From Myxococcales bacterium (GTDB taxonomy: Bacteria > Myxococcota_A > Polyangia > Polyangiales > DASUME01): DNA of 64,000 bases. Position 1 is the stretch's first letter; each line of letters starts with the position of its first letter. The notes under the pieces were generated by a model. The model had not been told where the DNA came from, searched no databases, and saw only the letters and a list, made by a program, of their open reading frames with translations. Location: assembly GCA_047601445.1 (NCBI GenBank), contig JASGJH010000001.1, positions 4,448,001 through 4,512,000 on the forward strand. Direction: 5' to 3'. The position numbers and the translations under genes were made by a program. Below, in pieces: positions 35,159-52,606 of this stretch.

Positions 35159-37093
35159 CTACGGGGTCTGCTTGGACAGCTCCTCGTCCGGATCGTCTGC
35201 CCAGGCGCTCACCCAGGTGCCCTCGCGCTCCACGGTGCGCAAAAAGGCGTCGTAGTAATCGTGGCCGCCGAGCGTGGCGCTGTCGCCGAGCACCAGGAGA
35301 AAGCGCTTGGCGCGCGTGAGCGCCACGTTCATACGGCGAATGTCGGTGAGAAAGCCGAGGGCGCGGTCGGGGTTGCTGCGCACGAGGTCGACGATGATGG
35401 CCTCTTTCTCACGGCCTTGAAAGCCATCGACCGTTCCGATCTCCAGGCCCTGCCCTCGCTCCTCCGCGAGCAGGCTGCGCAGCAGCCGGGCCTGGGCCTC
35501 GTAGGGTGTGATCACCGCGACCTGGTCGGGAGCGAGACCGCGACGCAAGAGACGCTTGAGCTCGGCTGCCGCGCGCTCTGCCTGCTGCGGATTGCGGGAG
35601 CTTGGGTCATTGCTGGCGTGCTCTTCCTCCCAGCCCCGACCGGCGCTGTCGATGAACACCAGAACGCCCGGCCTCAGGGAGTCGGGGCGCATACCGAGCT
35701 CTTCGAGCGTGTGCTGGGCGACCGACGGCGTCGCCAGCAGCTGCCCCTGGTACATGCTCTGAGAGGGGAAGTGCATCAGCGTCTCGTGCATGCGGTGCTG
35801 CACGCGCAACAGCGCCACGAGCTCCGGCTGCATGGTCGCCACGCGCTCGAACCAGGTGCTGGCCAGGCCATTGTGCGCCGCTTCCTCGTCGATCACCGTG
35901 GGAGGAAGCTGCATCGGATCGCCAGCGAGCACGGCCTTGGGTGCCTTCAGCAGCGCGATCAGGGACATCGGATCGGGCGCCTGCGTAGCTTCGTCGATCA
36001 CCACGCGATCCACCGGGAAGCGCTGCATGAGCTTGGAATCGGCCCCTGCGCAGGTGGCACAGATCACCTTCGCCTGGGCAAGCACCAGGTCCTGCGCCGA
36101 GGCGAGCAGCGCGCGTGCGTCACCGATCAAGCGCGAAGCCTCTTGCAGCATGCCGCGTCGCTCGCGGTAGGTGATGGCGCCGCGTGCCAGGCGCTTGTCT
36201 GCGGTGCGCCGCAGCTGCTCTGCCTCTCGGTTCCAGGTCCTGGCCAGCTTCGAAGCGTCACTGACTTCCACCAGGGCATCCAGTGTTGCACCCTCGACTT
36301 CGGGCGAGACTCGCGCTGGATGCCCGAGACGAACCAGGGGAACACGATGCGCGATCAGGCGCTCGGCCAGGTTGTCGACCGCGGTGTTGCTGGCCGCCGT
36401 CACCAACACCCGCTCGCCTCGCTGCACGCACTGACGGATCACCTCGACGAGTGTGCGCGTCTTGCCGGTCCCTGGCGGGCCGTGGATAAGGGAGAGCGGC
36501 GCGGCGGCGAGGGCGAGCGAGACCGCGACGCGTTGAGGCGGATTGAGCTCGCCATCGAGAAACGTGGGCTCGGAAGCTTGCGACAGCTTCGACGTTCCCC
36601 GCAAGAGCGCCTCACGCAGGATCGCTTCGGGCGAGCCCGTGCGCGCTGCGATGAGCCGCGTGATCGCGCGCTCTCCACGATCAAAGGTGGACTCGGGGGC
36701 CTCACGGTCTAGCTGAAATCCGCCGTCCCAGATCCGTTCGGGCACGTCGCCATCGACGACGAGCGCGAGCTTGCCCCTGGCGCGGCGCGAGACCACCGCG
36801 GAGATCGCTTCGGGCTCATCGGGCGCCTGCCACCAGAGGCTCACCGGTTCGCCGTTGGAGATGCGGACATCGTCCAGATCGATCGAGCCGCGTGTCTCCA
36901 GCCACAAGCGCAAGCGGCCCCCTGCCACCGCTTCGGCGTCGCTCACGTGCAAGTCCTCGAGTGCAAGGCCGCGCTCCACGCGCTCCGCGAGCGACAGCGT
37001 GCTTCGCTCCTGCCGAAAGCGCTCGCGGGTCGCCAAGCGCTCGCGCAGCCACAGGGCCTTGAGCCGCTCTAGGGTGAAGTCAGGAGGTGCCAC
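35159..37093 (-). CDS. IGHMBP2/UPF1-like superfamily 1B helicase
   Basis: HGPPGTGKT, ASNTAVDNL, DEATQ, GDPMQLPP, QHRM, TVDGFQGREKE, RRMNVALTRAK. Confidence 0.93.
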   Translation of the reverse strand: MAPPDFTLERLKALWLRERLATRERFRQERSTLSLAERVERGLALEDLHVSDAEAVAGGRLRLWLETRGSIDLDDVRISNGEPVSLWWQAPDEPEAISAVVSRRARGKLALVVDGDVPERIWDGGFQLDREAPESTFDRGERAITRLIAARTGSPEAILREALLRGTSKLSQASEPTFLDGELNPPQRVAVSLALAAAPLSLIHGPPGTGKTRTLVEVIRQCVQRGERVLVTAASNTAVDNLAERLIAHRVPLVRLGHPARVSPEVEGATLDALVEVSDASKLARTWNREAEQLRRTADKRLARGAITYRERRGMLQEASRLIGDARALLASAQDLVLAQAKVICATCAGADSKLMQRFPVDRVVIDEATQAPDPMSLIALLKAPKAVLAGDPMQLPPTVIDEEAAHNGLASTWFERVATMQPELVALLRVQHRMHETLMHFPSQSMYQGQLLATPSVAQHTLEELGMRPDSLRPGVLVFIDSAGRGWEEEHASNDPSSRNPQQAERAAAELKRLLRRGLAPDQVAVITPYEAQARLLRSLLAEERGQGLEIGTVDGFQGREKEAIIVDLVRSNPDRALGFLTDIRRMNVALTRAKRFLLVLGDSATLGGHDYYDAFLRTVEREGTWVSAWADDPDEELSKQTP

Positions 37094-41460: not shown

Positions 41461-44400
41461 ATGAAGAAATCACCTGAGGTGGAGACACCGGAAGCCTGGG
41501 ACCTGAGTCGCGTTCGGCTCACGGTACAGGCCGTATCCGACGGCGCCGACGTTGGCGCGGCAACTCGCCTGTCGTCGAGACACGTTGGCTACCACCTTCA
41601 AGCGGGCAGAATTCTCGGATGGCTAGCTGGCGACAACAAGCACCCGACAGTCACCGATGCGGGACGAGCGCTCCTTGCAGCGCCACGAGACTCCGCTCAG
41701 GAAGCCGAGGCGCTTCGCTCCGCCGTTTCCGAATGCGCTGCCGTCAAGGTCGTCGTGGGGGAGCGCTTCAGTGGGATAACGTTCGAGGAGCTGGTCGCGG
41801 CTCTCGAAAGTAGCCCGCTAACCGGACTTGCGCGATCAACGGCCAAGAAGCGGGCCGCGGCGTTGCTGCGATGGCGTGACCGAACTCAGAGCGCTACGCC
41901 CGAGCTACCGTCCCAGGCAGAGAGCGCGCGGTGTGAACGCATACTTGTTCTTCAGTTCAGCGACATCCACACCAAAGACCACGCCGATCGCCAAAGGCTC
42001 GAGCACCGGCTATCCAGAGCGATATCGGCAGTAGCTGCACGGCCCGAAATCTATGGAATACGAGAATGCCTCGTGATCATATCCGGCGACATCTCGTACT
42101 CGGGGACGACAAGCCAGTTCGAACTCGCAAGCAGCGCACTGGAAAGCGCGCTTGGCAAGCTCAAGAGCCGCCTTTCTCTAAACGATGTCCAGGTCGTAGT
42201 CACCCCAGGCAACCACGACTGCGACTTTACCGTCGAGTCAAAGGCACGCGGAAAGCTGATCTCGTCAGTAGATCCGGCCGATGTAGACGTTTCATACGTT
42301 GAGGCATGCACAAGTACCCAAACAAGTTTCTGGAAGTTCGCATCGTTTTGGCACACCGGGCCGACGAGAAGCGTCGAAAAGAAAGTGGCAATGGAGATCC
42401 ACAGGATCTCCATTGCTGGGCGGACGATTCATGTCAACTCGTTGAACACTGCCTGGATGTCGACCATAGATGAGAAGCAGGGTGCACTCGTCTTTCCGAG
42501 TTCTGGAATCACAGCATTGCGAGCGCCATCGCCTGCTCCTGACGTCGTGATTACGGTTGGCCACCATGGCTACAACTGGTTTGAAGCCAACAACGCACGT
42601 GCCCTACGGACATCTGTCGAGACCTGCTCCGACATCCTCTTCAGTGGGCACGAGCATATGGCAGACAGCACGCTGAAGCTCGGATCCGCCGGCGACACCT
42701 CTTGGCATATCGAAGGCGGAGTCTTGAACGACAGCACCACCGCTGAGAACAGCTCGTTTAATGCGGTGATTCTGGACATAGCGGGAGGAGAACTTCGGGC
42801 TCTGTCGTTCCGGTGGAACGATGCAGACGACATGTATGTCATCGACCGTGAATCGTCACCCGTTGCATTCCAGCGCAACCAGTTGCGAATGAGGAGCGAA
42901 TTCCAGCTCAACCAAGCCTTCCAAGCGGCGTTGAACGACCCCGGAGAATCGTATCAGCATCCGAGAAAGTCTCCGATTCGGCTCCAGGATCTCTTTGTCT
43001 ACCCAAACCTGGAGGAGCGCGTTCACGAGAAGCACGCAGATGTCGCGCGACTAATCAGGACGCCTATCGATTTCATACTGCGAGAGCAATGCGTCCTGGT
43101 TCTTGCGCCTGAACGCGCAGGCAAGACGGCAATGGCACGCATGCTTTTCTCCGATCTATACAGGCTTGGATTCGTGCCGGTACTGATTGACGGGCGCCAA
43201 CTCGACAACCCGGCACCCGAGCGCGTCAACGCCAGAGCCGACGAATCGTTCGTTGAAGGCTACGACAGGGCGCTTCTTGAACGCTTTCGACAGCTCGACC
43301 CTGCCAAGCGGGTCTGCATCGTGGACGATCTTCACCGTTCTCCCCTCAACATCGCGGCCAAGGACAAGGCAATCGGAGTATTGGCAAGTTTTGCGGATAT
43401 GGTCGTAGTGTTCACCGATGAAAACTTCGACGTCGCAGCGGTCAGCGGCCCTACTCAAAGCTCCCATCTCTGGGATTTCTCGCATTGCACGATGCTCCCT
43501 TTGGGACACCGGGTGAGGTACGACTTAGTGTCGCGATGGTGCAATCTCGGGCGGGGCCATGGCGACGACCCCGATGCAGTTTCCCGAGAAACCGAGCGTC
43601 GCGACAGGACCGTAACACGTCTAATTGGCCAGAACTTTTTGCCTGCATATCCAGTCTTTGTCCTGCTCTGTTTACAGCAGCTGGAGATCAAGGCTCCTGA
43701 GAGCAACCTCGGATCATTTGGCCATCTCTACGAGGCGCTACTCACGCGCAACCTGATAAGCGGAGGCTCATCCTCGGGAATGGACCTGGATGCAAAGCAG
43801 CAGTTTCTTTCCCATTTCGCTTTCCACCTATTTGAGAGCGGCTCCGAAAGCACTGACAGGACTGCTTTCAATTCGTGTTACGACGAGTACTGCGAGCGAT
43901 TCCACGTTCGCTTTTCACTCGAACAACTTGAGAAGGAGCTGCTTGCCAGCCTAGTATTCGAGGTAAAATCCGGGCGGTATTGCTTCAAGTATCAGTACGC
44001 ATACCTATTTTTTGTTGCCAGGTATCTGCGAGATCGTTTGGACGAGACGAGGATTCGGGGCATCGTCGTTGAACTTTGCCGCAAGCTTCATCACGAGCAC
44101 TCAGCTAACATCCTCCTCTTCCTCTGTCATCTTTCTAAGCACCCATTCGTGCTGGACACTCTCCTGGAGGCGGCGCGGTCCTTGTTCTCCGACGGCATGC
44201 CCCTGGACATGGAAACGGCTCTTTCTCCGATTCACCAGAGGGCGGAGCCACGCACACTACGCCTGGAAGGCGGCGATCATCGCGAGAATCGACGCGCACT
44301 GCGCGATATCCGAGATCAAGGCGAACGCTCACGCGGCGACCGAATCGATCACGACGGATTGCCACCAGAGGTTATGACGTTCACCGCAGCCTACAAGACT

Positions 44401-44994
44401 GTTCACATTTTGGGCCAAGTACTCCGTGGGTTCCCTGGCTCGATTCCTGGAGACAAGAAGCTGGAGATTGCCTCCGAGTGCTACTCTCTCGGGCTGCGCT
44501 CGACACGCGCGCTGATGGAAATGATCATCGCTTCTCGCGAGGAAATCGAGGCCGGCTTGTGCGAGGTAATCGGGAGTCGACGGCCTGGACTTCGTGACGA
44601 TAGCGACAAGCTGCAAAACGCTGCGCGACGCATGCTTTTTGACCTTTGCGAGTCGATGTGTTTCGGGACCATTCAGCACATTTCAGACGCTGTTGGCCTG
44701 CAGACACTCTCACGGACCTACGACGAGGTCTTAAAGAAGCACAGCCCGATTTCATATCGCATCGTCGACCTATCCGTTCACCTAGACCATTTTGACGAGT
44801 TTCCGCAAACCCAACTTGATGGGCTACTACGTGACGCCAAGGGAAAGGTTCTTCCCATGAACCTGATCGGAAGACTGGTCTGGCGCCACATGTACCTCTT
44901 TCCTGTTAATCCAAGACTGATTCAGTCTCTGTGCAGCAAGCTGAACATTCAGTTCACCCTCGCCCTCAAGTCTTCGGGCAAGGGCCGAAGCTAG
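41461..44994 (+). CDS. calcineurin-like metallophosphoesterase fused to a STAND-like NTPase and helical C-terminus (putative defence protein)
   Basis: SDIH, SGD, PGNHD, GHH, GHEH; then LFVYPNL, variant Walker A APERAGKT, Walker B IVDD; N-terminal ~150-aa wHTH-like region. Confidence 0.82.
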   Translation: MKKSPEVETPEAWDLSRVRLTVQAVSDGADVGAATRLSSRHVGYHLQAGRILGWLAGDNKHPTVTDAGRALLAAPRDSAQEAEALRSAVSECAAVKVVVGERFSGITFEELVAALESSPLTGLARSTAKKRAAALLRWRDRTQSATPELPSQAESARCERILVLQFSDIHTKDHADRQRLEHRLSRAISAVAARPEIYGIRECLVIISGDISYSGTTSQFELASSALESALGKLKSRLSLNDVQVVVTPGNHDCDFTVESKARGKLISSVDPADVDVSYVEACTSTQTSFWKFASFWHTGPTRSVEKKVAMEIHRISIAGRTIHVNSLNTAWMSTIDEKQGALVFPSSGITALRAPSPAPDVVITVGHHGYNWFEANNARALRTSVETCSDILFSGHEHMADSTLKLGSAGDTSWHIEGGVLNDSTTAENSSFNAVILDIAGGELRALSFRWNDADDMYVIDRESSPVAFQRNQLRMRSEFQLNQAFQAALNDPGESYQHPRKSPIRLQDLFVYPNLEERVHEKHADVARLIRTPIDFILREQCVLVLAPERAGKTAMARMLFSDLYRLGFVPVLIDGRQLDNPAPERVNARADESFVEGYDRALLERFRQLDPAKRVCIVDDLHRSPLNIAAKDKAIGVLASFADMVVVFTDENFDVAAVSGPTQSSHLWDFSHCTMLPLGHRVRYDLVSRWCNLGRGHGDDPDAVSRETERRDRTVTRLIGQNFLPAYPVFVLLCLQQLEIKAPESNLGSFGHLYEALLTRNLISGGSSSGMDLDAKQQFLSHFAFHLFESGSESTDRTAFNSCYDEYCERFHVRFSLEQLEKELLASLVFEVKSGRYCFKYQYAYLFFVARYLRDRLDETRIRGIVVELCRKLHHEHSANILLFLCHLSKHPFVLDTLLEAARSLFSDGMPLDMETALSPIHQRAEPRTLRLEGGDHRENRRALRDIRDQGERSRGDRIDHDGLPPEVMTFTAAYKTVHILGQVLRGFPGSIPGDKKLEIASECYSLGLRSTRALMEMIIASREEIEAGLCEVIGSRRPGLRDDSDKLQNAARRMLFDLCESMCFGTIQHISDAVGLQTLSRTYDEVLKKHSPISYRIVDLSVHLDHFDEFPQTQLDGLLRDAKGKVLPMNLIGRLVWRHMYLFPVNPRLIQSLCSKLNIQFTLALKSSGKGRS

Positions 44995-45277
44995 GCGCAC
45001 GGGCCGCTCGTGAGCACTTGCGTCGCTGAAGCCTGTACCTTCCTCTGTATGGAGCCCAGGGGCAAAGCACCAACTTAGAGCCGGCAGAGGGCGCCGAGTC
45101 GCATAGAGGCCGGAGCCTTTGAGTTCGAGCACGTTGGATCCAGCGTCGCAGGCAAGCCTGTTCGGAAGCCCTCCAAGATGCCTAAATCGTCAGTTTGGTT
45201 TTCACCCCTATGGTGCAATGACGGAGTTGGTTGAGGAGTGACTCAAAGTCCTAGGAGGATTGAGTGACCTAGGATAG

Positions 45278-45465
45278 GGTACGTACAGGGGCTCACAGGA
45301 GCTCTACACATCCGGCTACATCCTTTGCGGGCCCAATGCGCATTTGGGGTCGTGAGGGTCGCATCGGCGCGGGTCACCGCTCTGACGCATGAAATATACT
45401 TTTTCGCTCGGATGCGGCTTGGTGCGGGAGCTTGCGAGCAAACGCACCATTTTTAATTTGGTGTT
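45278..45465 (+). ncRNA. putative structured ncRNA associated with the downstream reverse transcriptase
   Basis: Consecutive stems at 45288-45305, 45322-45358, 45359-45417 (enclosing hairpin 45369-45380 and U5 at 45400-45404) and 45420-45449. G-U pairs favour the + strand. Ends are approximate. Confidence 0.6.
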
Positions 45466-45471
45466 GTTGCG

Positions 45472-47019
45472 ATGGCATCACGGACTGAGACCCATCTGCT
45501 GAACGCGATCCAGGATGAGGCGCGCAAGCTCATCCTTCGATATCAGCGTTATGCTCACGATCTGCACAACGAGGCCATGAGAATCGGGCGTCGAGCAGGA
45601 AGGGTTCCGCCGAAGGAAGTCAGGCGGCCGGGCTATTGGTCGTTGCCGGCGTTCGATCCATTTCATGTTCGAGCTCAGGCAGGGGGCTACGCGCATGCCC
45701 TCGCCCGTTCCCTTGAGCGAGACACCTACAAGCCGTGGCCCGCCGTTTCGTACGATGTCCCGAAGTCCGATGGCACGATGCGAGAGGTCAACGTGTTCTC
45801 GGTCGCCGACAATGCGTTCTCTCGTCTCGTTTACAAGGGACTGCTCGCAAAGAACTGCACGCGTTTCAGCGCTCGCTGCTATGCCTATAGGACCGACTTG
45901 ACCGTCCATGATGCGATTACACACATCGCGTCAGAGTTTCGTTCAACGCAGCGCCTCTTCATTGCGGAGTTCGATTTCAGCAAGTTTTTCGACTCGATTT
46001 CGCATGACCACATTCTTCGGGTACTAGACAGCGGTCAGTTCCTTCTGACGAATCGAGAGAGACGAATCATTGAGTCGTTTCTACGCACCCCGACTCTAGG
46101 AGTTGCCAGCTGGACGAACCGCTCGGTCCTAGTGCGCGAGCGTGGAATTCCCCAGGGAACTTCCCTCTCTCTGTTCTTGGCCAACGCAGCAGCAAGCCCC
46201 CTCGACAGGACGCTCGAACGCATGAGCGTGGGTTTCGCACGCTATGCCGACGACACAATTATTTGGTCCACCGACTACAGCGCAGTCCTGGGTGCCGTCG
46301 ACGCTTTGTCTGAGGCTGCTCGTCTGATGGGAGTTCAGATAAACCTGAAAAAGTCCGGCGGAATTAGCCTAGTTTGCCCACCAACCTACCGAAGCCCTGA
46401 GCTTGCTTCAAGCAAGGCGTCGGCTGTCTATCTCGGCTACGGGATCTCGCAATCATTCGTTTCGATTAGCCCGAACAATGTAGAGGGCATCAAGAAGCGG
46501 ATAGCCGAGATCGTGTTTCGCAACCTACTCGAGTTTCCATCGAATGGCATACTGAACGCCGCTCGCGTAGACCCTCCTATTGACCGGGACTACTACGTCA
46601 TGATTCTTCAGATCAGACGCTACCTATACGGTGACGTGAGTGAGCTTCAACTTCGTAGATTCTTCAATCGCACAAGCGCAAGGATTCGCTTTAGAGGGCT
46701 CATGTCTTTCTACCCGTTGGTCGACCACTTCGACCAGCTGAAGGCGCTTGATGGCTGGATGGTTCATACGATCGCGACGACGCTCAAACTGCGTGGCGAC
46801 TACTTTGTCAAAGCCGGAGTCCAACTGCCTCGTCCGCACGGCCTGAGTCGTGGTGAACTCCTTACCTTTCAGGGGCGAAGCACAAAGGACACCCCACTTG
46901 ACTTGCGCATTCCGAGCTTCGTACGGATGGCTCGCCTAATGCAGCGGGTTACGAAGTTGCGTGGAGCCAATGCAATCGCGAATCCCAAGTCATTTGAGTA
47001 CTACTGGGGCCTGACGTGA
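45472..47019 (+). CDS. stand-alone reverse transcriptase, group-II-like core, probably defence-associated (DRT9/UG28-like)
   Basis: VPKSDGTMR, CYAYR, DFSKFFDSISH, GIPQGTSLS, RYADD (YADD at 46243-46254), YLGY. No HNH or Cas1 fusion; C-terminus FEYYWGLT. Confidence 0.9.
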   Translation: MASRTETHLLNAIQDEARKLILRYQRYAHDLHNEAMRIGRRAGRVPPKEVRRPGYWSLPAFDPFHVRAQAGGYAHALARSLERDTYKPWPAVSYDVPKSDGTMREVNVFSVADNAFSRLVYKGLLAKNCTRFSARCYAYRTDLTVHDAITHIASEFRSTQRLFIAEFDFSKFFDSISHDHILRVLDSGQFLLTNRERRIIESFLRTPTLGVASWTNRSVLVRERGIPQGTSLSLFLANAAASPLDRTLERMSVGFARYADDTIIWSTDYSAVLGAVDALSEAARLMGVQINLKKSGGISLVCPPTYRSPELASSKASAVYLGYGISQSFVSISPNNVEGIKKRIAEIVFRNLLEFPSNGILNAARVDPPIDRDYYVMILQIRRYLYGDVSELQLRRFFNRTSARIRFRGLMSFYPLVDHFDQLKALDGWMVHTIATTLKLRGDYFVKAGVQLPRPHGLSRGELLTFQGRSTKDTPLDLRIPSFVRMARLMQRVTKLRGANAIANPKSFEYYWGLT

Positions 47020-47495
47020 TGGTAGCGCTGATTGAACCTTCGTAAGATGGGTTGGGTTTGAACTCGAGCGCGGGTTGTCACCGGCATTGGCCCAAAGGCC
47101 TCGCGCGGCGCACTAGGCGTCGAAGCTCTGCAGTTTTGCGCGTGGGCCTCTCGGGTCCGTGGGGCATGCGCCGTTGAACGTTGCGTCGGGGGCGAGGCTC
47201 AAGTCGCTCACGGTCGAGACGGCCCTGTGGCCATCTTGCCGTTTGCGGGCGGTCTCTAGGGTTGGATCGAGGACAGCCTTCTGTCTGAGCTGGCGGGCTC
47301 GGCGGTGCCGAACCGCATTCGCGGAGTCGGTATGGAGAGAAGCCGGTCACTGGGCACTAGCACATTGCGAGATGCTGCGAGGGCAAGCAGAGACGAGTGC
47401 CGAGATCGGGCGGGACTGGATTCAAAGTTGGAAGCAACGGTTTGACCGACATTGGCGTAGACATCGAGGTTTCTCGGCGAGATACACTCAGCTCC

Positions 47496-48248
47496 ATGCA
47501 TGAGTCAGATGCCGCAGACATCGAGTCCCAAGCCACTCAAGACATGCTAATGCGCCACTCGGTTCTGATGCTGTTCGCCAGCCGAACTACTGGAGAGTGG
47601 TCTCAGGGAACTGGCACGTTCTTCGAGACTGATCGGCATCACTATCTCGTCACCGCAGCTCACGTTGCCGAGGACTTAGGGGCAGATGATCTTCGGTTCG
47701 GGCTGATTCTGCAGCCCGGGGGGAGCAAGGCAATCTTCGAGCCGGAGAGGCCGGACCACTGGATTTTAGGGAATCAGGCGACGCGCGATGTTGCGGCGTT
47801 CCGACTTGCGCGTGGGGACGTGCAGGAGATCAAACGTGCCGGATTTCGATTCCTCAGGGTCTCCGACTTCGCCGACGGCGAGTTCGGGCGATTTGCGATC
47901 TACGGCTACCCAAAGGCCATGACAACAATTGACCATCATGGCCTGCACAAGGATTCGGTGTGGCTCGAAGTACCTGCGTATGAGGGCTCCGAACGGTGCG
48001 GGAAGAATGAGTTCCTACTGAAGTGGCACGACGGCATTGATTTTCATCTGGGCGGCGTAAGTGGTTCGCCGGTGTGGGCCGTCCTCGAACAGAGACCAGG
48101 CTCCATTTGGGGCGGACCAACGGCTCACTACAAATTCTGCGGTATCCAGATCAGCATAAAGAAGGGCGAATGGATCAAATTCGTGCAGGCGTTTGTGGTG
48201 GGAGAAATGCTCGATCTTGCAGATCGCATCCAGATCATTCGGAAGTAG
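47496..48248 (+). CDS. cytoplasmic trypsin-like serine protease
   Basis: GTG, VTAAHV, DVA, GYP, GGVSGSP; no signal peptide. Start uncertain (ORF opens at 47397). Confidence 0.8.
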   Translation: MHESDAADIESQATQDMLMRHSVLMLFASRTTGEWSQGTGTFFETDRHHYLVTAAHVAEDLGADDLRFGLILQPGGSKAIFEPERPDHWILGNQATRDVAAFRLARGDVQEIKRAGFRFLRVSDFADGEFGRFAIYGYPKAMTTIDHHGLHKDSVWLEVPAYEGSERCGKNEFLLKWHDGIDFHLGGVSGSPVWAVLEQRPGSIWGGPTAHYKFCGIQISIKKGEWIKFVQAFVVGEMLDLADRIQIIRK

Positions 48249-48515: not shown

Positions 48516-48818
48516 CTACCTGCCCACCCAATACCCCGGCTTCCTCCGCTGATGCGCCACTGCCAGCACCTGCAACTCGTCGCCGACCACCCGCACGATC
48601 ACAAGATACGGGAACCGTCTCAATAGGTGCACGCGACGGGTCGGACTTCCCTTCCGCCATGCTCGTCCGCTGCGCGGAAACTGCCGCGCGCGCGCAAGCA
48701 CCACGCCTAGCTCGTCTACAAACGCGTCGCCGAGCTCGGCGCTCATCTCAGCGAAGTAGCGCTGAGCTTCCTGCACCTCGCGGGCGGCCGCAGGGTGGAA
48801 GAGAACCCTACGCGTCAC
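48516..48818 (-). CDS. type II toxin, RelE/ParE family
   Basis: FHPAAARE...F...FP...LRRFPY...VLAVAHQRRKPGYW. Confidence 0.9.
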   Translation of the reverse strand: MTRRVLFHPAAAREVQEAQRYFAEMSAELGDAFVDELGVVLARARQFPRSGRAWRKGSPTRRVHLLRRFPYLVIVRVVGDELQVLAVAHQRRKPGYWVGR

Positions 48819-49042
48819 CGCCGTAGACTCTCGCGCAACCCATCCCAGTCGATTAGCTCGACTTCGCCCTTCTCAATCTCTTCCTCACGCCGATCGAGCT
48901 CCGCGCTCCAGGCGGCCTCAAAGTCCGCCACGTCTTCGCCGGGAGGGTCGAGTGTCTTGAGCAGCTGGGTGATGACCTTGGCGCGCTCGGAGCTGTCGAG
49001 CGCACTCGCTTGCTTCACGATGTCGGCAACCTTGGAGGCCAT
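48815..49042 (-). CDS. addiction module antitoxin (TIGR02574-like)
   Basis: AL...ERA...LL..LD...AAWSAELDRR...IDW; 4-nt overlap with the toxin gene. Confidence 0.88.
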   Translation of the reverse strand: MASKVADIVKQASALDSSERAKVITQLLKTLDPPGEDVADFEAAWSAELDRREEEIEKGEVELIDWDGLRESLRR

Positions 49043-49143: not shown

Positions 49144-52100
49144 TCACGAGCACCCCATGCTCGCCCCGCAATTCAGGCACTTATAACAAGCCCCGTTCCG
49201 CACCGTAATGTGCCCGCACGTATCGCACATCGGCGCGTCCCCCATCATCTCACCCAAGTGCTGGTCGAGCACGCTGCTAGCACCCGCCCCATACTCCTTC
49301 GCACTCGCGCTCGAGCTCGAAGGCGGCGGCGGCAAGCTACTCGCTTCACCCGGTGAGTACTGATGCACCGCCCCCACGTCAGTCGGATCCTTCATGTCCG
49401 CCTGAACTTCATCCGGCGGCACATGCGCAAGGTCATACCGCTTGATGTACTCCACACCCAGCGTGCGGAAGATGTAGTCGATGATCGAGGTGGCGAACTT
49501 GATGTTCGGGTGCCCCTCAACCGGACCCTGCGGCTCGAAGCGCGTGAACGTGAACTGCTCGACATAGCTGCCGAGTGGCACGCCGTGCTGGAGACCCATG
49601 GACACGCTGATGGCGAAGCAGTTCATGAGTGAGCGGAAGGCTGCGCCTTCCTTGTGCATGTCGACGAAGATTTCGCCGAGCTCGCCGCTGTCGTACTCAC
49701 CGGTGCGCAGGAAGACCTTGTGGCCGGCCACGCGGGCTTCCTGGGTGAAGCCGTGGCGCTTCTTGGGCAAGCGGTGACGAACGGTGGGAGGGGGCGAGAG
49801 GCCTTCCTTGAGCTTGGCTGCCGGACGCGCTGCGACGGCGGGCACGGGGGCCGGGGCCGGGGCTTCGATCTTGGCGACGGCCTTGGTCTCGGACTTTTCC
49901 TTCTTGTCTTCGGTGCCGCTGTTGAGCGGTTGGCTGAGCTTGCAGCCATCGCGGTAGAGGGCGACTGCCTTGAGGCCGAGCTTCCAGCCCTGCATGTACA
50001 CGTCGGCTACGTCTTCTACCGTCGCGTCATTGGGCAGGTTGACGGTCTTGGAAATGGCGCCGCTCAAGAAGGGCTGAGCGGCGGCCATCATGCGCACGTG
50101 GGACATCGGAGCGAGGAATCGCTTGCCCTTCTTGCCGCAGCGGTTCGCGCAGTCGAACACGGGCAGGTCTTCGTCTCGAAGGTGGGGGGCACCTTCGATC
50201 GTCTGACGACCGAGCACCGTGTCGTTCAGCTCTTCGATCTGTTCGGGGGAAAGACCGAAGTGCTTGAGGAGGTTGAAACCAGGCTTGGCAGCCAACTCGG
50301 CGGGAACTCCGAGTCGGTCATAGGCTTCCTTACCGATGACCCAGAGCGCGAGGGCCTGACCCACGTCGAACACGCCCACGAGAGCCTTCTCGGCCTTGGC
50401 GATTTCGGCGTCGGAGAGTCCCTTTTCCGCGAGGATCTTGCGGCTGAGGTGTGGCGCACCCGTGAAGGTGTTGGTGCCGCTGATGAAGGCCACGATGTCC
50501 GCGGTCTGCGCGTCGGAGTAACCGAGGCGCTTGAGGGCGTCGGGCACGGAGTTGTTGACGATCTTGAAGTAACCGCCGCCGGCGAGCTTCTTGAACTTCA
50601 CGAGCGCGAAGTCGGGCTCGATGCCGGTGGTGTCGCAATCCATCAAGAGACCGATGGTGCCGGTGGGCGCGAGCACGGTGGCCTGCGCGTTGCGGTAACC
50701 GCTCTTCTCCCCCGCGCGCACGGCGAGGTCCCAGTCGTAGGCGCCCGCGGCGAGCACGGAGCTGATGACGTCGTCGGCGGCGCCGCCCTGGGCCTGGAAG
50801 TCGTTCTGCCAGGTGTGGGCTGCATTCTGGTGCTTGCGCATCACGCGCAGCATGGGGTCACGGTTCGGGGCGTAACCCGCGAACGGTCCCTTGCTCTCGG
50901 CCATCTGGGCGCTCACGGCGTAGGCGTGGCCGCACAGGATGGCGGTGAGTCCGGCGCACAGCGCGCGGCCCTCTTCGCTGTCGTAGGGGATGCCGAGGCG
51001 CATCAGCAGCGTGCCGAGGTTGGCGTAGCCGAGACCGAGCGGACGGTACTCGTGGCTGTTCTGGGCGATCTTCTCGGTGGGGTAGCTCGAGTAATCGACC
51101 AGGATTTCCTGGGCGATGAAGAGCACGCGGATGGCCTGGCGGTAGCCCTCGATGTCGAACTTGCCGTCGTCGGACAAGAACTTGGTGAGGTTGATGGACG
51201 ACAGGTTGCAGGCCGTGTCGTCGAGGAACATGTACTCGCTGCAGGGGTTGGACGCGTTGATGCGATCGGTGCCCGCGGCGGTGTGCCAGTCGTTGATGGT
51301 GGTGTCGTACTGCACGCCCGGATCGGCGCAGGCCCAGGCGGCCTCGGCGAGCTTCTTCCACAGGTCGCGCGCCTTGAGGGTGCTGGCGACCTTGCCGGTG
51401 GTGCGCTCGTAGGTGCGCCACTCGCCGTCCTGCTCCACGGCCTTCATGAAGGCGTCCGTGACGCGCACGGAGTTGTTGGAGTTCTGGCCGGCGACGGTGT
51501 GATAGGCCTCGCCGTTGAAGTCACTGGAGTAGCCAGCCTTGATGAGGGCCGCCACCTTGCGCTCCTCGCGCACCTTCCAGGTGATGAAGTCCTCGATCTC
51601 CGGGTGGTCCATGTCGAGGCACACCATCTTGGCGGCGCGACGCGTGGTGCCGCCCGACTTGGTGGCGCCCGCAGCGCGGTCGAACACCTCGAGGAAGCTC
51701 ATGAGGCCGGAGCTGGTGCCGCCGCCCGAGAGCTTCTCGGTGATGCCGCGGATCTTGGAGAAGTTGGAGCCGGTGCCGGAGCCGTACTTGAAGAGGCGGG
51801 CTTCGTTCTTGATGAGGTCGTAGATGCCCATCAGGTCGTCCGAGACGCTCTGGATGAAGCAGGCGGAGCACTGGGGCTGCTCGTAGGCGTTCTTGGTCTC
51901 GGCGACCTTGCCGACGACGGGATCGAAGGCGTAGCTGCCGCCCGAGCCTTCGATGCCATAGCGCTGGAAGAGGCCGCAGTTGAACCACACGGGCGAGTTG
52001 AAGGCGCCCTTCTGGTTGATGAGGATGGAGGAGAGCTCGGCCTCGAAGGTGTCGGCGTCTTCGGTGGAGGCGAAGTAGCCGCCGAACTTCTCACCGGCCT

Positions 52101-52437
52101 CGCGGATGGTGTGCGAGACGCGGTAGACGAGGTCGCGGGCGGAGGTCTCGCCGCGCTTGGCGTCGCCGTTGATGCCGGCCTTGCGGAAGTACTTGGAGAC
52201 GGCGATATCGGTGGCGAGCTGGGACCAGCTGGCGGGGATCTCCGCGTTCTTCAGCTGGAAGACGACGGTGCCGTCCGGGTCGGTGATGACGCTGTCGCGG
52301 TTCTCGTACTTGACCTCATTGAGGGGGTCGACGCCCGGACGCGTGAACATGCGAGCGAGCACCAGGCCCTTGCCGAGGCCCGAGTCACGAGCTGCCTTGG
52401 CGCCGCGACCGTTCGTCTTCTCCGTGTTTTTCTCCAC
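49144..52437 (-). CDS. nrdJ: vitamin B12-dependent (class II) ribonucleotide reductase
   Basis: [46 protein letters not shown]-terminal TSCPD-like domain and CxxC...CxxC...GCS. Start GTG 52437 follows GGAGG (ORF opens at 52461). Confidence 0.96.
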
Positions 52438-52606
52438 TTCGACCTCCCCTTCCTCTTCCACGAGTTCCCGAAAAAACCCCAGCCTGTCCCCAGCTCCAGA
52501 AACAGACGTTTTTCTTATTTATTCCAAGCGTTTAGATACGTGCGTTGCGCTCTGATTACAGACTTATTCAGAGGCGCGAATTCCCAAAGCGCGGCTAGGT
52601 CTGGTT

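Follow-up and report, generated by a model that had tools for sequence, protein, structure and literature searches.

The A/T-rich segment at 45391-45404 of the window, by which we mean the whole 64,000-nucleotide stretch of a Myxococcales genome analysed here, is very probably the loop that serves as template in a two-part DRT9 anti-phage system, whose intact reverse transcriptase (RT) likely copies four uridines (U4) into poly-dA. The family of the RT, its catalytic and priming residues, the sequence of the adjoining non-coding RNA (ncRNA), a fold supported by covariation, and the place of the U run in the alignment are established. A sequence-only reading of this DNA had proposed the U tract as a template for reiterative homopolymer synthesis; with a DRT9 RT adjacent and the U run at the SenDRT9 template position, that proposal is likely right, yet the mechanism had already been published for DRT9 (2025). 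A folded DRT9 ncRNA gene, defined at the level of sequence and structure, is predicted at ~45288-45454, directly 5' of the RT gene. The features discussed below are:

45275-45280, + strand: possible -10 hexamer TAnnnT, weak and assigned by eye, 7 nt before SL1
45288-45305, + strand: SL1, the 5' hairpin; pair probabilities 0.92-1.0; start of the covariance-model match
45307-45316, + strand: 5' arm of SL2, likely the true closing stem; 8 bp and one outer pair, pair probability 0.99
45322-45358, + strand: single internal hairpin from the predicted fold, in place of SenDRT9 SL3 and SL4; 14 bp, four of them G-U
45361-45388, + strand: SL5, with a GUCA tetraloop at 45373-45376; covariation helices 4 and 5
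45391, + strand: G45391, inferred to be the likely equivalent of SenDRT9 G113; G in 21/22 relatives
45392-45404, + strand: predicted template loop, the top-scoring motif site 5' of the RT
45406-45416, + strand: 3' arm of SL2, from the fold and the covariance model
45420-45454, + strand: SL6 or terminator-like hairpin, then a second T5 (not the template); fold probability 0.82-1.0
45472-47019, + strand: DRT9 (UG28) RT, 515 aa, from the PADLOC Drt9 profile, the PDB 9ioa group and alignment

Published DRT9 biology

The UG28 group was named DRT9, and its ncRNA is required, according to the available parts of PMC9226505. In SenDRT9, as described in the available parts of PMC12483538, ncRNA residues U123-U126 template protein-primed poly-dA, and changing the template to A4 redirects synthesis to poly-dT. 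The hexamer is held by C93 (in SL5), G113, and an SL4:SL4 contact; phage gp58 and the host's ExoI set the level of poly-dA; SenDRT9 can do without the 3' U-rich region; and two of the ten DRT9 systems tested in E. coli are reported as active. The same C-G inter-subunit pair appears in the portions of PMC12489045 at hand, together with Y25, Y496/Y498, and an R205/K208 pocket for SL4, and there U-to-G and G114C changes abolish DRT9 function. A model in which poly-dA sequesters the phage single-strand binding protein (Song et al. 2025) is summarised in part of a review (PMC13434031).

The reverse transcriptase

An intact 515-residue open reading frame (45472-47019, +) starts 55 nt 3' of the segment singled out in the sequence-only reading (45359-45417), and its profile, structure and alignment matches identify it as an intact DRT9 (UG28) reverse transcriptase. 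First, the protein matches the PADLOC Drt9 profile with 558.7 bits (E 2.8e-168) over profile positions 2-487 of 488, with the next-best PADLOC family at 104 bits, UG17 at 82.8 bits, and Drt2 at 48.8 bits. Second, a PDB search places solved DRT9 structures at the top (9ioa, 9nlv, and others), the 9ioa group reaching E 2.3e-102 over residues 6-511. Third, the active site YADD occupies residues 258-261 and is invariant, together with Tyr27 and Tyr510, in 9/9 aligned RT rows; Tyr27 aligns with Sen Tyr25 and Tyr510 with Sen Tyr496. The features that define DRT9 membership, namely a UG28-clade RT along the full length, YADD, and C-terminal tyrosines equivalent to Sen Y496 and Y498, are all found. 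The C-terminal tail reads Tyr510-Tyr511, and Tyr-Tyr is the ending seen most often (60 of 96 DRT9 rows). Overall, the enzyme is 40% identical to the Salmonella-type DRT9 enzyme.

Two other identities were considered and rejected. Retron profiles score at most 45 bits in PADLOC and 53 against a cut-off of 235 in NCBIfam; the group II intron profile TIGR04416 scores 117 against 300 bits, and Rfam gives no intron match in the stretch before the RT start (44900-45600). An optional SLATT partner is listed for 7/124 DRT9 members in the available part of PMC9226505. Here, no SLATT-sized open reading frame flanks the RT on its strand, and PF18160 is unmatched in the genome, with control genomes equally silent.

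Limits and fold of the ncRNA

Scans for RT homologues yielded 78 genome and 80 metagenome loci. The RT is matched at E 1e-25 or better by 130 loci, 124 of which reach the N-terminus, and 113, the window excluded, carry distinct upstream sequence of at least 200 nt. The closest branch supplied 23 ncRNAs, or 21 distinct sequences after removal of two identical copies. In their alignment, 95.9% of the consensus structure is paired and 18/28 pairs change on both sides, counts that overstate independence as the homologues are related; the support for the structure beats all 500 shuffles, and slid-partner controls reach 30-46%. The SL1 helix is 100% paired in the 21 homologues, and SL2 is 97.6% paired, with changes on both sides in 8/12 pairs. 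A covariance model built from these relatives, with the window omitted, finds a single match in the 64 kb, at 45288-45423 (27.5 bits, E 1.3e-4), and a single match in the 9.5-Mb genome, again the window's ncRNA (E 0.019); the score is modest and the E-values are rough. The match pairs 45307-45316 with 45406-45416. No other copies of the ncRNA or of its intergenic DNA occur in the genome. Folding of 45288-45418 gives z -4.85 on the + strand (0/200 shuffles as good) and -1.53 on the - strand, in agreement with the earlier proposal of RNA-level structure on the + strand.

Stem-loop numbers were inferred from published residue numbers and predicted folds. The reference RNA, L159, comes from an E. 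coli locus in the table of PMC12483538, with its U run numbered 123-126; in this numbering, position 113 is the G ten bases before the U run and position 93 is the C of the GUCA loop, which makes the GCGG-GUCA-CCGC hairpin SL5. C45375 of this loop is the likely equivalent of SenDRT9 C93, and the loop C is kept in 20/22 close relatives; C45375 and G45391 would form the inter-subunit pair. The spacing from the C93 position to the U run is 25 nt in the window and 30 in SenDRT9. The internal hairpin at 45322-45358 had been read as a 15-bp stem with four G-U pairs; the four G-U pairs hold, and the stem contains 14 pairs and one G.G mismatch.

At the 5' end, a consensus promoter scan called no promoter. 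Close relatives carry a TAnnnT hexamer at similar spacing 5' of SL1, as judged by eye. At the 3' end, a strict terminator scan made no call, the SL6 hairpin at 45420-45454 included, and an Rfam scan of 44900-45600 returned two chance-level matches only. Just 5' of the ncRNA, 45236-45274 holds two 7-mers that each occur twice and two overlapping inverted repeats (45238-45268 and 45249-45274), possibly an operator, or a terminator or spacer after the upstream DS-8 gene. Within 45303-45323, ACATCC occurs twice (45308-45313 and 45318-45323), resembling a duplicated SL2 5' arm, the second copy giving a weaker alternative register.

The locus could belong to DRT9 and still be decayed or silent, with a short SL2 and competing pairings that prevent the RNA from folding into the RT. 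SL2 has 8+1 pairs in the window, its outer bases unpaired, against 12 bp in most close relatives; three segments (45309-45316, 45315-45323, and 45358-45365) compete for one 3' arm; and the window's end branch in the RT tree is long (0.78). Against decay, the RT reading frame is unbroken and no key residue is missing, the native SL2 register retains a pair probability of 0.85-0.99 in an RNA whose fold stands at z -4.85, and SL1 and SL5 retain compensatory changes. We regard a decayed copy as improbable and favour a functional DRT9 ncRNA.

The stem that encloses the template

In a functional DRT9 ncRNA, the stem that encloses the template is probably formed by 45307/45309-45316 with 45406-45414/45416. 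The earlier reading had closed the domain with TCGCATC (45359-45365) and GATGCGG (45411-45417), around GCGG-GTCA-CCGC (45369-45380) and T5 (45400-45404). These letters are all in place and the complementarity is real, extending to 8 bp with 45358/45418 and to 12 nt at 83% in a repeat finder; the pairing itself is probably wrong. In the whole RNA, 45309-45316/45406-45414 is favoured by 8.5 kcal/mol, and pair probabilities are 0.99 for SL2 and ~1e-5 (8e-6) for the 45359-45365 stem, or 0.85-0.89 and 0.001-0.002 with more flanking sequence. The columns of the 45359-45365 stem, mapped by eye, are 54% paired in the 21 homologues, compared with the near-complete pairing of SL2, and three of its seven pairs are broken in at least 19/21. 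RNAalifold, applied to the 21 ncRNAs, likewise gives a 12-bp closing stem whose 5' arm comes right after SL1. A third SL2 register, at 45315-45323, has a pair probability of 1e-4 to 0.02. In addition, the lower 5' strand of SL5 uses bases that had been assigned to the earlier closing stem.

The second pairing might nevertheless be a functional alternative fold, in which 45358-45365/45411-45418 either encloses the template domain or, by opening SL5, acts as an off switch for the RNA. Its 8-bp complement is the best fold when 45322-45420 is folded alone. The energy deficit in the whole RNA and the broken pairs in homologues speak against such a role, and a 7-bp match to the shared 3' arm is expected by chance in between 5% and 20% of shuffles, the lower figure holding for at most one G-U. 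This makes a functional switch very improbable, and SL2 is retained as the enclosing stem.

The U tract as probable template

The A/T-rich patch GAAATATACTTTTT at 45391-45404, with T5 at 45400-45404, had been called striking in this DNA, and the count bears this out: counted without overlap, 14-mers in which 12 or more letters are A/T number five in the 64 kb, this one included, and another is the tail of the downstream hairpin. U45400-45403 align with SenDRT9 U123-U126. A 16-nt template profile, seeded on L159 and refined on the 113 loci, exceeds the score cut of 6 in 108/113 homologues (median 18), a cut that 361/2260 shuffles also pass. The best site in the window, 45392-45407, scores 13.8, with its core at 45400-45403, and the next site scores 2.1. 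A TTTT core stands at the template position in 100 of the 108 scored homologues, where the U run measures four in 65, five in 28, six to eight in 12, and three or fewer in 3. Among 22 close relatives, U45400-45402 are invariant (22/22), 45403 is U in 14, and 45404 is U in 3 and C in 19. Judged by alignment, the conserved core is thus U3-U4 (45400-45402/3) and U45404 is an extra, non-conserved uridine, so that conservation of the tract extends to its core and stops short of the fifth U. Given the run lengths and the relatives, five uridines are an ordinary variant.

The tract had also been described as unpaired. The consensus fold leaves the template loop unpaired, and RNAalifold keeps the U run open; the single-sequence fold of the free RNA instead pairs U45402-45404 weakly with GAAA (probability ~0.9). 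This predicted pairing weighs little, because the last two template uridines of the Salmonella-type control fold are partly paired too (unpaired 0.47 and 0.31).

A rival reading denies the U run any part as template and takes it for the tail of a terminator or attenuator, or for A/T-rich sequence arisen by chance; it has next to no probability. In its favour, a GC-rich hairpin does precede the run, and the + strand holds 13 tracts of T5 or longer. Against it, the run lies 11 nt past that hairpin and inside SL2, a separate hairpin with its own T5 follows at 45420-45454, the terminator scan makes no call at the U run, and homologues from different phyla keep the run where the template is known to lie.

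Two close relatives, L090 (729-854) and L143 (4847-4973), have three U only at the template position and offer natural tests of minimum template length. The five DRT9-like RT loci that miss the template motif score are L080, L087, L034, L014, and L053; L080/L087 and L034 carry a T4 run in another context, and the L080/L087 RTs end in Tyr-Gly-Tyr.

Proposed mechanism

By analogy with SenDRT9, the template reading suggests the following sequence of events. Transcription of the RNA would begin at ~45288 and run as far as the hairpin with its T5 at 45420-45454. SL1 and SL2 would hold the RT, while SL5 and G45391 would link subunits into an oligomer. The RT would prime on its own C-terminal tyrosine, Tyr510/511; U45400-45403 would be copied, melted, and realigned, and this slippage would yield long, protein-linked poly-dA. 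Made during phage infection, poly-dA would block the phage, either through growth arrest or by sequestering the phage single-strand binding protein. Expression of the RNA, assembly of the oligomer, slippage synthesis of poly-dA, and phage defence are, for the window's system, expected from this analogy. The control step of SenDRT9 is not transferable as it stands, since the ExoI C-terminal family has no match in the host genome (98.7% complete); the control search was positive in E. coli.

A myxobacterial and acidobacterial branch

A tree built from 96 full-length DRT9 rows (unrooted, quick search) puts the window in an 18-row group with support 100, which includes Plesiocystis, Acidobacteriota, and soil contigs, the highest identity to the window's RT being 51%. 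On this tree, the window's DRT9 is part of a deep myxobacterial/acidobacterial branch. Nineteen of the 96 rows, the window among them, have 15-16 extra residues (15 in the window) before GIPQG, where Sen R205/K208 bind SL4. Predicted folds show one internal hairpin in the branch and two in L159.

Compared with SenDRT9 and EcoDRT9 (9nlv, 9nlx, 9ioa, 9iob; PMC12483538, PMC12489045, and PMC9226505, each in its available parts), the window shares an ncRNA directly 5' of an RT of ~500 aa; an RT with YADD, an N-terminal Tyr, and a C-terminal Tyr; and an RNA with SL1, an enclosing SL2, a GUCA-loop SL5, the conserved G, a U run 5' of the SL2 3' arm, and a 3' terminator-like hairpin. It differs from SenDRT9 in the 15-residue RT insertion, in one internal hairpin for SL3 and SL4, in five U, in a Tyr-Tyr tail where Sen has Tyr-x-Tyr, and in a host that lacks an ExoI family match. 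DRT10 (UG17) and DRT2 (UG2), as far as the sources at hand describe them, are likewise Class 2 UG/Abi RTs that work with a structured ncRNA and synthesise cDNA repetitively; they produce tandem repeats or concatemers, whereas a homopolymer is predicted for the window's system.

Two Myxococcus UG28 RTs in Supplementary Table 1 of PMC12483538, WP_141591522.1 and WP_223786002.1, also have a longer segment before GIPQG (by eye), so the branch is already in the published set, as far as this table goes. A limited literature search found no study of this DRT9 branch; the figures and PDF supplements of the DRT9 papers may already show its RNA.

The apex of the internal hairpin (45335-45344) is a perfect GC-rich palindrome. 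The same 8-mer occurs in L084 (4788-4920), and L001 (4782-4918) has another palindrome; the self-duplex energy is -9.5 to -12.7 kcal/mol in these three and no stronger than -4.6 in the remaining 20 relatives. This lead is post hoc, with n=3, and two of the three sequences are probably not independent. A palindromic loop as a family-wide feature was rejected: 16/212 internal hairpins in 114 loci have one, near the 1-in-16 chance level. From its sequence, the self-complementary apex loop could possibly make a kissing contact. We propose, with considerable doubt, that the branch might assemble differently: the palindrome would form a kissing loop with its counterpart in a second RNA across a two-fold axis, the 15-residue RT insertion would replace the SL4 pocket, and poly-dA would be kept in check without ExoI.

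With this copy, DRT9 reaches a probable myxobacterial host, at ~50% identity or less to any relative found, and the 21 relatives provide a curated fold for the branch, which departs from the solved complexes. Having five uridines by nature and a host without an ExoI match, the copy is also a usable test of how many uridines are needed and of how poly-dA is silenced, points that the available parts of PMC12483538 leave open or tied to E. coli. Elsewhere in the family, one Fusibacter chromosome carries two DRT9 loci (L037 and L038), and the L037 frame, read from the match start, stops early.

Host and genomic neighbourhood

Myxobacterial protein families, MYXO-CTERM among them, occur in the host genome. 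GC content around the cassette is low: 53-57% across 42001-47000, where the genome as a whole has 66%. The gene upstream (41461-44994, +) encodes the anti-phage protein DS-8 (NF053861, 847.6 bits, cut-off 790), which combines a metallophosphoesterase with a NACHT/STAND NTPase and is described in the available part of PMC13092281. DS-8 was rejected as a DRT9 partner: across 77 DRT9 loci with at least 3 kb upstream, tblastn matches its own locus only. The profile exceeds its cut-off in 1/41 genomes searched, its own, and neighbours differ among 12 close relatives of the DRT9 locus. DS-8 is a separate defence system. It carries an extra N-terminal part of 160 residues, for which the nearest Atlas clusters are of the DUF7226/winged-helix type (score 0.85, a lead only).

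There is no DRT9-level match in 60 relatives of the host, where two matches in one genome (G001) reach 29-31% over the core only, and none in a 400-genome sample of the phylum, an absence that fits a sporadic, acquired defence island. Viral contigs yield 14 loci, all partial, at 22-35% identity and none DRT9-like, and plasmids yield two records at ~36%.

Other genes around the cassette are recorded here as observations. Downstream of the RT, 47397-48248 (+) encodes a trypsin-like peptidase (PF13365, below cut-off), which tblastn finds beside no other DRT9 locus, matching its own locus only. A ParE-type toxin and an unstable-antitoxin gene (PF05016 and PF09720) follow at 48516-49042 (-) and adjoin a B12-dependent ribonucleotide reductase at 49144-52461, which places the island at the 3' end of the reductase gene. 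About 4 kb from the island, 35159-37093 (-) encodes an SF1 helicase of the IGHMBP2 family (TIGR00376, above cut-off).
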